This document shows positions 10,982 to 38,449 of a DNA stretch of 64,000 bases, one piece after another. The position numbers and the translations under genes were made by a program. The stretch comes from a phage: the sequence record PZ386974.1. One strand, 5' to 3'. Numbering within the stretch: the stretch's first letter is position 1; every line of letters begins with the position of its first letter. The notes beneath the pieces are model-generated. The model saw only the letters and a list, made by a program, of their open reading frames with translations, ran no database searches and was not told the DNA's origin.

Positions 10982-12670
10982 TTATGAAACAGTCATTACA
11001 GTAAATCGTCCAACTTTGCTCATCCGAAGATGTTGTCCATAACGTTGAGGGTCATGGTCTCGATGAGAGATAATGAACACATTAGTATTTTGTAAACTTC
11101 CAAGAATGGTATCTATAGCCTTAACAGCCTCAGAATCGACAGCCCCGTCAAAAACCTCATCAAGAATCAGAGTGTTGATTTTAACACCAGAGACCTTTTC
11201 AGCAATATCTCTCCATGTAAACAACAATGCGATATCGATACGTGCCTTTTCACCTTGACTAAATGAAGCATAACTAAAATCTTCACGACCACGTGATTTT
11301 ATAGATTCATTGAATTCTTCGTCAATAGAAAACACGTAATCAGCTTCCATGATTTTAAGATAATGGTTAATCTGCTTGTTGAACAGAGGCACATATTTTT
11401 TAATGATAGCACCTTTAATACCAGAATCTTTTAACATATCTGTGATAATACCACGATGGTATTTTTCAAGAACGATATCCGATTTTGTTTTAATGATTTT
11501 ATCAAGTTCTTTTTGAAGCAAAGCTATCTCATCGGCATGGTCGATAAATTCTGCTGAGGCTTGCTCTATTGCAGCTTTAACTTTCTTAGCTTTATCAATA
11601 GTGGCAATCATTGCTTGTTTCTTGGTATGAATATCAGATGCAAGGTCCTGTTTAGTCTTAACATTAGCTCTATATTCGTCCACTAGGACACTCAGATTAT
11701 CTCTGTGACATGTAAGTTGCTCGAATGAGTGATTACATTCGTGAAGCTTATCGGTAATCTTAGAGACAATAGGATCACCCTGGTGCAACTGTGATGCACA
11801 AGTAGGACATGTGCCACCATCATGATACATCTTAATAACTTTGTTGTATGAGTCGATTTTAGATTTAATCAAGAATGCTTCTTGTCCTATCTTGTTGAAT
11901 GCCTCAGTAGGGTCTTCATCAAGAACGATATTAAGTAGTCGCTCATTAGCTTCTTCGATTTCTGCTTTTAATGAACGAGCTTCTTTGGCTAGGTCGTCAT
12001 ACATATTCTGTAGACGCGCTACATTATCACCAGATAATTTCTTTTGACGTTCGATATTCTCGTTATAAATCTTAATTTGTTGGATAACACCATCTTTCTT
12101 GGCATCGAGAACTTGTCCCTGGGAATTAAGTTCTCGAACTTGAGACTTATTGATTTTATCCATTTCGGCGAGTGTGCCGACTTCTAAAAGGTCTTCGACA
12201 AGTTTTCTACGAGCAGGGGTGCTAAGAGCCATGAAAGGGGTATACCCTGCCGTCCCAAGCACAACGATCTGTTTAAAAGACGCGTATGACATTCCGATGC
12301 TACGTTCAAATTCTTCTTGGAAGTCACGACTGCTGGCAGATTCATCGAGACGAACACCGTCAACGGAGATTTCGAAAATATTGGGCTTTTGGCCACGTCT
12401 AATGAAGTATTTTTTATCATCGAATTCCATCCAAAGCTCAACTAAGAGCTCTTTCTTGTTCGTGCTATTAATGATTTGTCCTTTCTTAACATCACGAAAT
12501 GGTTTACCGAAAAGTCCGAAAGTAATGGCTTCTAACATCGTAGATTTACCACCGCCATTTTTACCAGTGATTAATGTCTTTTGGACTTTATCTAATTGGA
12601 TATCAATAGGATTCCCACCTACCGACATGATGTTTTGATAACGAACACGATTTAATTTAAATGATTTCAT
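10982..12670 (-). CDS. 46: recombination endonuclease subunit gp46 (SbcC/Rad50-like ATPase)
   Basis: 562 aa; Walker A GKNGGGKST near N-terminus, coiled-coil middle, C-terminal ATPase motifs. Confidence 0.9.
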   Translation of the reverse strand: MKSFKLNRVRYQNIMSVGGNPIDIQLDKVQKTLITGKNGGGKSTMLEAITFGLFGKPFRDVKKGQIINSTNKKELLVELWMEFDDKKYFIRRGQKPNIFEISVDGVRLDESASSRDFQEEFERSIGMSYASFKQIVVLGTAGYTPFMALSTPARRKLVEDLLEVGTLAEMDKINKSQVRELNSQGQVLDAKKDGVIQQIKIYNENIERQKKLSGDNVARLQNMYDDLAKEARSLKAEIEEANERLLNIVLDEDPTEAFNKIGQEAFLIKSKIDSYNKVIKMYHDGGTCPTCASQLHQGDPIVSKITDKLHECNHSFEQLTCHRDNLSVLVDEYRANVKTKQDLASDIHTKKQAMIATIDKAKKVKAAIEQASAEFIDHADEIALLQKELDKIIKTKSDIVLEKYHRGIITDMLKDSGIKGAIIKKYVPLFNKQINHYLKIMEADYVFSIDEEFNESIKSRGREDFSYASFSQGEKARIDIALLFTWRDIAEKVSGVKINTLILDEVFDGAVDSEAVKAIDTILGSLQNTNVFIISHRDHDPQRYGQHLRMSKVGRFTVMTVS

Positions 12671-17864: not shown

Positions 17865-18205
17865 GGCTTAATTTCCTTCGCAATTGAACAGAAGATACTA
17901 CGGTCACAAAGCATTTCACCAATTTCTGGATATTTGATTGAACGGTACCAAACATCCAGGCTTGAAACTCTGGTTATCTGTACTGCATTACCGTTGACAG
18001 AATAGTACTGGTCAACCTTAATTTCTTTATCTTCAATTGTCATTTTGTTTTCCTCTGTGGTAGATGGTGCTAATCTTAACATATCTATCGAGGATGTAAA
18101 CTGTTTTATGAAAATATTTTTGATTTGAGAGGGGCACAAGGAGATAATGAAGTGAAGATTCCAATGGATTATATTAGAAATGAGATAAAGAAGACCAGGC
18201 GGCAC
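17861..18205 (-). CDS. hypothetical protein (114 aa)
   Basis: ORF. Confidence 0.5.
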   Translation of the reverse strand: MPPGLLYLISNIIHWNLHFIISLCPSQIKNIFIKQFTSSIDMLRLAPSTTEENKMTIEDKEIKVDQYYSVNGNAVQITRVSSLDVWYRSIKYPEIGEMLCDRSIFCSIAKEIKP

Positions 18206-18209
18206 CTGG

Positions 18210-18533
18210 TCAATCTTCTATGATATCAGAGTCATATCCTAATGAAATCAAGGACTTTTTAAACTCTGCAATATTCTTTTGTTTCTTATCATTTAAAAAT
18301 ATGACAGGATAACGAATATTAAGTGAAGTGAATCCTGCACGTTTAGCAAGAGATACGATTAAAGGACGGTCATATTCAATCTTACCATTATTAGTGAGGA
18401 CTTTATAAAATGTATAAGGAGCATTGAGCTCCTTTAAAAGTTTTGTAACAGTATAACATCCTGGACAACGTCCTACTTCTTCAGGGATGCCATAGATTTC
18501 AATCTTGTTCTTTAAGTTCGAGTTTTGTTCCAC
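18210..18533 (-). CDS. nrdH: NrdH-like glutaredoxin (probable GTG start)
   Basis: KIEIYGIPEEVGRCPGCY carries a CPGC redox motif; the ORF-track N-terminal extension (to 18662) is hydrophobic junk overlapping another coding frame, so start set at GTG 18533. Confidence 0.55.
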   Translation of the reverse strand: MEQNSNLKNKIEIYGIPEEVGRCPGCYTVTKLLKELNAPYTFYKVLTNNGKIEYDRPLIVSLAKRAGFTSLNIRYPVIFLNDKKQKNIAEFKKSLISLGYDSDIIED

Positions 18534-18817
18534 GAGAAATAATTCCTTGGTAAGCCCAATAAGGAGGATTAACAGAATCCTCGCCAGAGTTTTCTTCAGG
18601 AAAATAAACCTGGATAACAAATCCAGACTCATCAAAGGTAAAATAAACCGTAGGCAGTTCACCTAACAATTCGACACGAGCATTAATTTCTTCTAGATCT
18701 CGTTCACGTCCAGCCCAAAAAACTAGGATTTAGACTACATTCATAGAAATAATAGTCATTACCGAACATATCAAAACCTTTCCAACTCTCTACCACATAC
18801 CGCTCAAAACTAATCAT
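18499..18817 (-). pseudogene. frameshift-split ORF (~109 aa if joined) upstream of nrdH
   Basis: ATG at 18817 opens a 37-codon frame ending at TGA (18704); a +1 frame with good coding character but no ATG continues from the T6 run (plus A6 at 18717..18722) to 18499. Confidence 0.35.
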
Positions 18818-18819
18818 AA

Positions 18820-19035
18820 TTAAGCCTTTTTATCAAGAACAGAATTCAGTTTATTAGTAATTTTGTCCAAACGTTCATTGAATTCGCTGGAGGATAAACC
18901 CTTTTCTGGAGAAATTAAACTAATCACGAAAAATACACCAGTAAAAGGAATAAGAAAAATAGCTCCAACTGCCATAAACAAAAAGAACGTTACAGTTGTA
19001 AGAAAATCAGCTAAACCTTTACGAAATTTATACAT
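18820..19035 (-). CDS. small membrane protein (71 aa)
   Basis: Hydrophobic stretch FLFMAVGAIFLIPFTGVFFVISLI. Confidence 0.5.
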   Translation of the reverse strand: MYKFRKGLADFLTTVTFFLFMAVGAIFLIPFTGVFFVISLISPEKGLSSSEFNERLDKITNKLNSVLDKKA

Positions 19036-19145: not shown

Positions 19146-19616
19146 TTAATCATGTTTCCACACCCCATCGGTATTTGACCAAAGTCGCTGATTATCTGAT
19201 CCTCGCCACAGCTTTTTAGTCGGAAGATTTTTCTCATACTTCCCATCAATAATAACATCAACATATTTAAGCATTTCTAGTTGTTTAATATCTTCAAACT
19301 TATATCCTGTCCACAACCAAATGCTTTTATTGGGATAAAGATTTTTTACTGTTTGAACAATGCGATGAATAACATCTCGGTTATCAGGATAGAGAGGGTC
19401 TCCTCCGGTTATAGTTAATCCTTCTATATAATCATTATTCAAACATTCAATTAATTGTTCTAGTGTCTCTCCAGTGAATGGAACACCGTTTCTAGCATTC
19501 CATGTTGATTTATTATAACACCCTTCGCATTTATGCAAACAACCTGTGACGAAAAGAACGACCCTGCAACCAGGGCCATTCACAAAATCGCAAGGATAAA
19601 ATCTATCATAATTCAT
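19146..19616 (-). CDS. nrdG: anaerobic ribonucleotide reductase activating protein NrdG (radical SAM)
   Basis: Cys cluster CRVVLFVTGCLHKCEGCYN; 156 aa; adjacent to nrdD. Confidence 0.9.
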   Translation of the reverse strand: MNYDRFYPCDFVNGPGCRVVLFVTGCLHKCEGCYNKSTWNARNGVPFTGETLEQLIECLNNDYIEGLTITGGDPLYPDNRDVIHRIVQTVKNLYPNKSIWLWTGYKFEDIKQLEMLKYVDVIIDGKYEKNLPTKKLWRGSDNQRLWSNTDGVWKHD

Positions 19617-21430
19617 TGGTGTTTAACCCTATGCATGATTTCTTTATTTTTGCCTAGATTAAATCCGCGTTCGTTCGGGTTTCCAAGATAACCACACGTT
19701 CTTCTTATTGTGTTCATCTTTTTAGGATCAGTTTCTCCACAAATAGAACAAACAAATCCGTTTTCAGTAGGAGTCATTTCATGGGTACTTCCACACGTAA
19801 AACATTTATCTACTGGCATATTAACACCAAAATAATCTAAATGTTGTGCAGCATAATCCCAGACAGCCTCAAGTCCCTTTAAATTGTTTTTCATATCTGG
19901 AAGTTCAACATAAGAAATGTGACCACCTGACGCAATGAAATGATATGGCGCTTCACGAGAAATCTTTTCAAACGGAGTAATATTTTCTTCTACTGAAACA
20001 TGGAAACTATTAGTGTACCAGCCTTTATCAGTGACATCCTTTACACTTCCATATTTTTCCGTGTCGAGTTTACAGAAACGATAACACAAGTTTTCAGCAG
20101 GAGTAGAATACAAGCTAAAAGCAAAACCGGTTCTTTCGGTCCACTGTTTAAGATGAGTATTCATTTTAGTTAAAATTTCTTGTCCAATATCACGACCGAC
20201 AAGAATATTCAATTCGTGAATACCAATGTATCCTAGGGACACTGAACTTCTACCGTTTTTAAATAACTCAATTATATCGTCATCAGGTTTAAGACGGACC
20301 CCGAATGCACCTTCTTGGTAAAGAATAGGAGCAACAGTCGCTTTAACCCCTTTTAAGGAACTAATTCTACACATCAAAGCTTCAAAACACAAATCCATTC
20401 GTTCATCGAACAATTCGGCAAATTTCTGTTCATTGAACTGTGTTCCAATATAAGAATCTAATGCGATACGAGGAAGATTCAGTGTTACAACACCGAGATT
20501 ATTACGTCCATCAAGAATTTCATTACCGGTCGAATCTTTCCATACGCTCAAGAAACTACGGCAACCCATTGGAGAAACAGGAACTGAAGAACCGGTAATA
20601 GCTTTATTATTCTTAACCGAAATAATATCAGGATACATTCTTTTGCTTGCGCACTCTAGAGCAAGCTGCTTAATATCATAGTTCGGATCATCTTTATAAA
20701 GATTAACACCTTCTTCAACAAACATAACAAGCTTAGGGAAAATAGGAGTTATTCCATCACGACCAAGACCTTTAATGCGGTTTTTAAGAATTGCCTTCTG
20801 AATCATTCGTTCAGTCCAATCGGTTCCCGTACCAAATGTAATTGTTACAAAAGGCGTTTGTCCGTTTGAACTAAAGAGAGTATTTACTTCATATTCATAA
20901 GCTTGGAATGCGTCATAGACATCTTTTTCTGTTTTGGATTGAGCATAATTCAACGCATCAGCGATTTGCCATTTTTCTGCATCTTCAATATGTTTTGCAT
21001 AGGTGCGTTTAACATAAGGAGAAAGTACTTTATCTACATTAGCAAAAGTCGTTCCGCCATACTGGTGAGAAGCAACTTGTGCGGTAATTTGTGCCATAAT
21101 TGCAGTAGCAACGCCAATAGATTTAGGCGTTTCAATTTGAGCATTGCCTAATTTAAATCCATTCTCAAGCATCCCATTTAAATCGACTAAACAGCAATTA
21201 GTAAATGGAAGAGCAGGAGAATAATCAATATCATGCATGTGAATGATTCCGCTTTCATGCGCATTCATAATAAAAGACGGGACCATATTTTTGGCAATGT
21301 GCTTAGACACAATACCAGCCATAAGGTCCCGTTGAGTTGGAAAAACACGAGAATCTTTATTAGCATTCTCGTTTAAAAGGTCTTTATTAGTTTTATGAAT
21401 TAATCCTTCAATTTCTTTTTCAATTTTCAT
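19613..21430 (-). CDS. nrdD: anaerobic ribonucleoside-triphosphate reductase NrdD (uninterrupted)
   Basis: 605 aa; C-terminal glycyl-radical motif RRTCGYLG and Zn-ribbon CFTCGS...CSICG. Confidence 0.95.
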   Translation of the reverse strand: MKIEKEIEGLIHKTNKDLLNENANKDSRVFPTQRDLMAGIVSKHIAKNMVPSFIMNAHESGIIHMHDIDYSPALPFTNCCLVDLNGMLENGFKLGNAQIETPKSIGVATAIMAQITAQVASHQYGGTTFANVDKVLSPYVKRTYAKHIEDAEKWQIADALNYAQSKTEKDVYDAFQAYEYEVNTLFSSNGQTPFVTITFGTGTDWTERMIQKAILKNRIKGLGRDGITPIFPKLVMFVEEGVNLYKDDPNYDIKQLALECASKRMYPDIISVKNNKAITGSSVPVSPMGCRSFLSVWKDSTGNEILDGRNNLGVVTLNLPRIALDSYIGTQFNEQKFAELFDERMDLCFEALMCRISSLKGVKATVAPILYQEGAFGVRLKPDDDIIELFKNGRSSVSLGYIGIHELNILVGRDIGQEILTKMNTHLKQWTERTGFAFSLYSTPAENLCYRFCKLDTEKYGSVKDVTDKGWYTNSFHVSVEENITPFEKISREAPYHFIASGGHISYVELPDMKNNLKGLEAVWDYAAQHLDYFGVNMPVDKCFTCGSTHEMTPTENGFVCSICGETDPKKMNTIRRTCGYLGNPNERGFNLGKNKEIMHRVKHQ

Positions 21431-27965: not shown

Positions 27966-28102
27966 AACATATCCTCTTTGATTTGTACATCATTATTTTA
28001 AATATTTCTATGCCCTCAGTAGGTTCCTAGTGTCCTTCTTTGAGGTAAGCCATATGATTATTCATCTTTATGGCTTTTGTTACCTCAGAACTTCCTATAA
28101 GC

Positions 28103-38070: not shown

Positions 38071-38385
38071 TTATTCTTTAGGGAAGTTTTTAGAGTATGC
38101 ATCATAAAGTTTATTACCGATGCGACGGAAGACTTTAGCTGCAAAACGGTTTTCAGGGTTTTTAATCATGATTTGCATCATGTAAGTTCCTGCATCCGAA
38201 AGAGCTTCTTCATAGTACCCATTAATTTCTTTAAGGGTCCTACGTTTACCACCAGGACCATCAACAGTAATTTTCCATTTACCTGTAGAAGTGCGGCTCG
38301 GTGGCTCAACTTGTTCAATCCAAATATAACCACCTTCAACGCGTTGGTTGGCGGATTCTGCAATAAATTCTTTATACGTTTTCAT
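38071..38385 (-). CDS. internal protein (IP) candidate with capsid-targeting sequence
   Basis: N-terminus MKTYKEFIAE. Confidence 0.65.
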   Translation of the reverse strand: MKTYKEFIAESANQRVEGGYIWIEQVEPPSRTSTGKWKITVDGPGGKRRTLKEINGYYEEALSDAGTYMMQIMIKNPENRFAAKVFRRIGNKLYDAYSKNFPKE

Positions 38386-38449
38386 TTTTTGTTTCCTTGT
38401 TTGTTTTGATAGAGTAATTATACCATATTAATACTTAAGCGTAAACAAT

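Follow-up and report, generated by a model that had tools for sequence, protein, structure and literature searches.

Gene organization around the split reading frame

The window (the whole stretch of DNA that was analysed, 64,000 nucleotides in length) is from a Mosigvirus, an RB69-type T-even phage. A 1-kb region matched 678 phage records, the closest being Mosigvirus genomes with 97.5–99.4% identity, and nearly all of the Mosigvirus matches to this region fell short of the query length by exactly one base. In a 20-kb comparison, the highest identity to the phage collection was about 97%. The locus considered here lies between the gp55.8-like gene and nrdH, in a region with the following features:

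19613–21430, minus strand: nrdD
19146–19616, minus strand: nrdG
18820–19035, minus strand: gene for a gp55.8-like small membrane protein of 71 aa (phrog_1930, E = 2e-35, and the annotations of relatives)
18704–18817, minus strand: 5' fragment of the split gene, from ATG 18817–18815 through 37 codons to TGA 18706–18704
18717–18722: homopolymer, A6 on the plus strand and T6 on the coding strand, with five bases in relatives; site of the one-base insertion
18499–18716, minus strand: 3' part of the split gene, read in the +1 frame as WAGRERDLEE...KLELKEQD and ending at TGA 18501–18499
18543–18548, minus strand: AAGGAA, a Shine-Dalgarno-like element 9 nt upstream of the nrdH GTG (10 nt if AAGGA alone is counted)
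18210–18533, minus strand: nrdH, encoding a glutaredoxin of 107 aa with a CPGC motif, from GTG 18533–18531 in a third frame
18193–18211, minus strand: terminator-like hairpin immediately following the nrdH stop, rich in GC (GACCAGG...CCTGGTC) and succeeded by a T-rich tail

The gp55.8-like gene is directly upstream of the split gene, with its stop codon 2 nt ahead of ATG 18817, and at its other end the split gene shares 35 nt with the start of nrdH, which is read in a different frame. The hairpin at 18193–18211 probably marks the end of the transcription unit. Beyond it, paired +1 and -1 single-base differences from phage moskry are found at 18070 and 18117, 47 nt apart, in the intergenic region between nrdH and the gp55.6 homolog, and affect no annotated gene. 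Several relatives have a terminator annotated at the position of the hairpin.

The NrdH protein of the window is 86% identical to T4 NrdH over 100 aa with the CPGC motifs aligned, and matches phrog_22 with E = 1e-15, while its score for the Pfam Glutaredoxin family, 21 bits, falls short of the cutoff of 22.9. The same 324-nt gene is annotated in moskry (moskry_98) and JS09 (JS09_0105). The initial annotation described nrdH as starting without an ATG, at GTG 18533 in a third frame; this is true, and the start is an ordinary one, since T4 nrdH is also annotated from a GTG after AAGGA. In T4 the gene begins GTG AAA CAA AAT after AAGGAATAGTT, which contains AAGGA, and in the window it begins GTG GAA CAA AAC after AAGGAATTATTTCTC, which contains AAGGAA. 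This AAGGAA lies inside the conserved Q-G-I codons (YQGIIS) of the upstream gene, and the dual use of these codons may be the reason why the C-terminal YQGIISRG is so strongly conserved across genera. Whether RNA structure at the start of nrdH provides translational coupling was considered, and the idea was rejected, as a 141-nt segment surrounding the GTG folds no better than shuffled sequences (z = 0.67). With its own AAGGAA and GTG, nrdH is presumably still made, independently of the broken gene upstream.

The two fragments belong to one conserved gene

The initial annotation had ATG 18817 opening a 37-codon frame that ends just after the T6 run, followed by a second frame without an ATG that continues from the run to 18499. 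Both sets of coordinates are correct. The translation of the 37-codon frame is MISFERYVVESWKGFDMFGNDYYFYECSLNPSFLGWT, in which codons 1–33 are the true N-terminus of an ortholog of RB69ORF082c (phrog_2749) and the last four (LGWT) are out-of-frame read-through. On inspection of its sequence the 3' fragment has neither an ATG of its own nor a ribosome-binding site, the sole start candidate being a TTG at 18669 that likewise has no ribosome-binding site; its +1 frame is open throughout, to the TGA at 18501–18499. When one T is removed, the two parts join as a protein of 105 aa. A single-nucleotide join had been proposed for these frames and is borne out, although the size given at the time, about 109 aa, was too large. 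Residues 1–100 of the restored protein match positions 1–99 of the 100 in the phrog_2749 profile (E = 4e-49), and a full-length match of this kind indicates that the split frame is not a chance pair of ORFs. The restored protein is 100% identical to a protein of phage ECO26.1 3-1.

The same position is occupied by a single annotated gene in moskry (moskry_99, 105 aa) and in JS09 (JS09_0104, 89 aa as annotated from a later start, and described as similar to RB69ORF082c), in each case overlapping nrdH. These and other relatives share with the window the gene order gp55.8, ORF082c ortholog, nrdH, together with the 35-nt overlap, and their proteins are 97–100% identical to that of the window once the extra T is taken out. 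The frame is uninterrupted in the family over about 97–105 codons, whereas the copy in the window is broken after codon 33. Given the five-base run and single frame of the relatives and the phrog_2749 match, the locus between gp55.8 and nrdH is one gene, a disrupted or miscalled copy of the RB69ORF082c ortholog, and the earlier description of it as one gene split by a homopolymer frameshift directly upstream of nrdH is upheld.

By tblastn the gene was found in 527 phage records, in 526 of which it is in one piece and one frame. The records span Mosigvirus, several Tequatrovirus (RB51, RB68, PP01), Dhakavirus, SP18 and Kanagawavirus. Identity to the restored protein is 93–100% in the Escherichia, Shigella and Yersinia phage records listed, about 44–50% in Dhakavirus (Bp7) and SP18, and 39% in Kanagawavirus (IME523). 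The residues at the junction, NPSFWAG, do not vary among homologs at about 66% identity; adding a homolog at 49% identity leaves the N and the F as the only invariant ones. The gene is conserved and, as judged by comparison of coding sequences, under purifying selection; synonymous and non-synonymous codon differences from relatives stand at 9:3, 5:2 and 12:6.

The restored protein has no match in Pfam, no convincing structural relative of the RB69ORF082c / phrog_2749 family was found, and our search for literature on RB69ORF082c returned nothing. The family is tiny, with 10 representatives at E <= 0.001 among 1.84 billion proteins; the 8 best of these are 88–100 aa in length and the two weakest are partial matches to proteins of 802 and 1695 aa. 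The predicted fold is a single compact domain, and the break would sit in the loop that follows its third strand. T4 (NC_000866, 2306–2829) has no ORF082c homolog, and its nrdH lies directly after 55.8 with a 2-nt gap, so that the gene is dispensable within the group. In Shigella phage CT01 the gene can be recognised only by its last 26 codons, a remnant that has probably been kept as the leader and start of nrdH. The states of T4 and CT01 together suggest that a deletion removed the gene in that lineage.

The additional T is private to the window

In an alignment of the window with moskry, JS09 and ECO26.1 3-1, the only structural difference is the run of six T's in place of their five, which changes codons 32–34 from AGT TTT TGG to AGT TTT TTG G. 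In the comparison with orthologs that had been proposed as a check on the initial annotation, the relatives are not split. The 40-nt context with T6 occurs in none of 50,697 phage records, whereas the context with T5 occurs in 218. The corresponding patterns gave 0 and 4 matches in IMG/VR, and the T6 context was also absent from metagenome contigs and from GTDB genome contigs. The 37-aa peptide of the window has no record among 153 billion gene positions. In the same collection the exact NrdH protein of the window is present in 462 blocks, and the gene upstream of it is intact, at 103–105 aa, in all 10 contexts listed. The exact NrdD and NrdG proteins of the window are not on record, which means that there is no independent assembly of the same phage to compare. 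A phase-variable contingency locus was rejected as an explanation of the run, all 218 records having T5, none T6, and only the window differing.

Frame changes at this locus were also seen in two other public records. In Pectobacterium phage PM2 (KF835987, 11902–12501), to which we were pointed by BFVD, the product PM2_077 is annotated as 'glutaredoxin' and has 199 aa, with an ORF082c-like domain and NrdH in frame with each other. PM2 is the only one of 544 genomes with the fusion. The junction, near 12205–12225, reads GGAAAAAAATAT and contains A7, where A8 would recreate the usual two overlapping genes, and the fusion is probably another homopolymer indel or an error in the record. The domain fusion was therefore rejected as evidence of a functional link to NrdH, as it occurs in PM2 alone and its A7 junction is one A short. 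The second case is the Logan contig ERR10879660 (1501–1806), which has an extra G, CAAGGGAATT in place of CAAGGAATT in the relatives. This G alters the last 15 residues to give P0002, of 101 aa with 4 member sequences, and also falls within the nrdH ribosome-binding site.

Recoding and separate function of the two parts

A programmed frameshift was among the options raised in the initial annotation. Deliberate decoding could take the form of a +1 slip of tRNA-Phe on U UUU U, or of RNA polymerase slippage on T6, with the 105-aa protein as the product in either case. A +1 slip or the loss of one U in the mRNA does regenerate the ancestral NPSFWAGR exactly, and U UUU UUG fits the X XXY YYZ heptamer pattern. 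A shift on this heptamer, however, would be by -1, into a frame that stops after 8 codons and is not that of the gene; only a +1 shift would rescue the gene. The codon that follows is UUG, so that neither a slow codon nor a stop codon is in the A site; no SD-like element lies upstream; and the downstream 87 nt fold no better than shuffled sequences (z = -0.23). The two-frame layout is found in no relative, those compared above having T5 and a single frame. In ERR10879660 the run itself is replaced by AGCTTCTGG with S-F-W still encoded, and the retention of these residues while the run is lost argues that the protein, and not a slippery sequence, is what selection maintains. Transcriptional slippage meets the further difficulty that the run has 6 nt as against about 9 nt, and that it has 5 in frame in the relatives, so that its length is not conserved. 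In many bacterial genomes, selection against slippage-prone A/T runs is evident at about 9 nt (PMC1088944). Since neither the split nor the run is conserved, no signals accompany it and the run is short, both programmed frameshifting and transcriptional slippage are rejected, and we consider deliberate decoding of the run highly improbable. Traces of full-length protein may possibly arise from a rare +1 slip or U loss, which would be leakiness and not design. Very little probability, too, is given to a real T6 at which low-level +1 slippage makes the gene a leaky 'pseudo-pseudogene' with reduced dosage, the nrdH overlap linking the expression of both proteins.

The least probable of the explanations is, in our judgement, that the two parts are separate functional small genes, the halves working together or independently. 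Both frames are open and have coding character, as such a reading would have it, but the second part offers translation initiation nothing better than the unaccompanied TTG, the break as modelled would fall inside the single compact domain, and no relative is split in this way.

Origin of the additional base

We therefore conclude with high confidence, on the comparison of genome sequences, that the split is a private, non-programmed single-base frameshift; this confidence is the sum of that in a real mutation and that in a miscall. Our slight preference is for an insertion that is real, very recent and due to replication slippage, in an accessory gene that the phage can do without; the sequence data lead us to give this about an even chance. 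One T would have been added to the T5 run by Streisinger-type slippage. Translation from ATG 18817 would then leave the frame after Phe33 and stop four codons on, yielding the 37-aa peptide and leaving the remaining 72 codons untranslated. The extra base would be present in the phage DNA and the allele would be null, a fresh one that has not yet acquired a second lesion. The rival reading, to which we give somewhat less than an even chance, is that the phage DNA has T5 and an intact gene, and that the sixth T is a miscall of sequencing, base-calling or polishing.

The comparison of the whole window with moskry and three further relatives bears on both. The insertion at 18717 is the only frameshift in a conserved CDS in 64 kb, and no internal stops were found in the conserved genes of the window. 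Of 222 assessable homopolymers of at least 5 bases, two have a length absent from all four compared relatives, namely 18717–18722 and 38385–38390. A generally error-ridden assembly is not supported, with one conserved CDS broken and only these two run lengths private. At 607 positions in 61.4 kb the window has substitutions that distinguish it from all four relatives; private natural variation is thus abundant, and a private indel does not stand out against it. This variation and the cleanliness of the assembly fit a real, very recent slippage mutation. One CDS hit in 64 kb, despite 284 runs of at least 5 and 61 of at least 6, is also fewer than error-prone data usually produce.

The second private run, on the minus strand at 38385–38390, reads AACAAAAAATG, with five A's before the ATG of an RB69ORF124c ortholog where the relatives have four. 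The change is from A5 to A6, in a run that ends in the A of the start codon; it is in the 5' untranslated region and lengthens the spacing between ribosome-binding site and ATG by one base. Among phage records the A6 context has no match, as against 117 for the A5 context. Natural variation or a second error of base-calling could account for the change. As the sole other length unseen in the relatives, and again a +1 in a 5-base A/T run, it is a point in favour of a miscall at 18717–18722 and could hint at systematic over-calling, which would count against a real mutation. The window is about 93% coding, however, and that one of two candidate errors should fall in the roughly 7% that is non-coding fits natural indels filtered by selection somewhat better. 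A third indel that differs from the four compared relatives also speaks against miscalling, being a natural polymorphism. This is the T4 run at 27996–27999, flagged alongside 18717 in the search for frameshifts and situated 31 nt upstream of ATG 27965, where four close relatives have T5; the T4 state is common to 19 other phage records, which identifies it as natural intergenic variation.

Several further observations favour a miscall. None of the public sequences searched shares the T6 state, and the gene is otherwise perfect, its protein being the one identical to that of ECO26.1 3-1. It is conserved and evidently under purifying selection; a gene that is intact in all but one of the genomes that carry it is under selection, and a natural knockout is expected to be rare. 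The same locus has suspicious homopolymer frame changes in public records, at the A7 junction of PM2 and the extra G of ERR10879660. A +1 homopolymer lesion is also exactly the error type of homopolymer-prone sequencing platforms. A few residual base-calling errors would look like this: a pristine gene under selection disrupted by a +1 seen in no other genome, and another such +1 at a second run.

The lesion or miscall is of an ordinary, already known kind, and its main use is to correct the annotation. A single RB69ORF082c / phrog_2749 ortholog, frameshifted at 18717–18722, should be entered for the locus, in place of a pair of hypothetical proteins or a recoding site. Should the insertion prove real, the phage would be a natural knockout of a small gene that more than 500 T-even phages conserve, and of modest use as a reagent for learning the role of this gene beside nrdH.

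Comparison with known systems

Streisinger-type frameshifts, which arise by replication slippage at homopolymer runs, are classic in the rII and lysozyme genes of T4. The change in the window resembles them in being a single-base gain in a short A/T run of a non-essential T-even gene, with early termination in the shifted frame, and differs in being read from an assembled sequence, in which the extra base may be a miscall. Pyrosequencing, semiconductor and nanopore miscalls likewise take the form of a +1 in a 5-base run that is private to one assembly and breaks an otherwise perfect conserved gene, whereas the window has only one gene affected in 64 kb. The +1 frameshifting of the prfB type and transcriptional slippage, as known from Thermus dnaX and IS elements (PMC1088944, PMC5009743), share with the window a homopolymer at the frame junction from which a +1 slip leads to the full-length ancestral protein. 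In contrast to these systems, the window has a split and a run that its relatives do not conserve, lacks a stall codon or stimulator, and offers 6 nt where about 9 is typical. From its closest counterparts, the RB69ORF082c / phrog_2749 relatives represented by moskry_99 and JS09_0104, the gene in the window is set apart by its broken frame.
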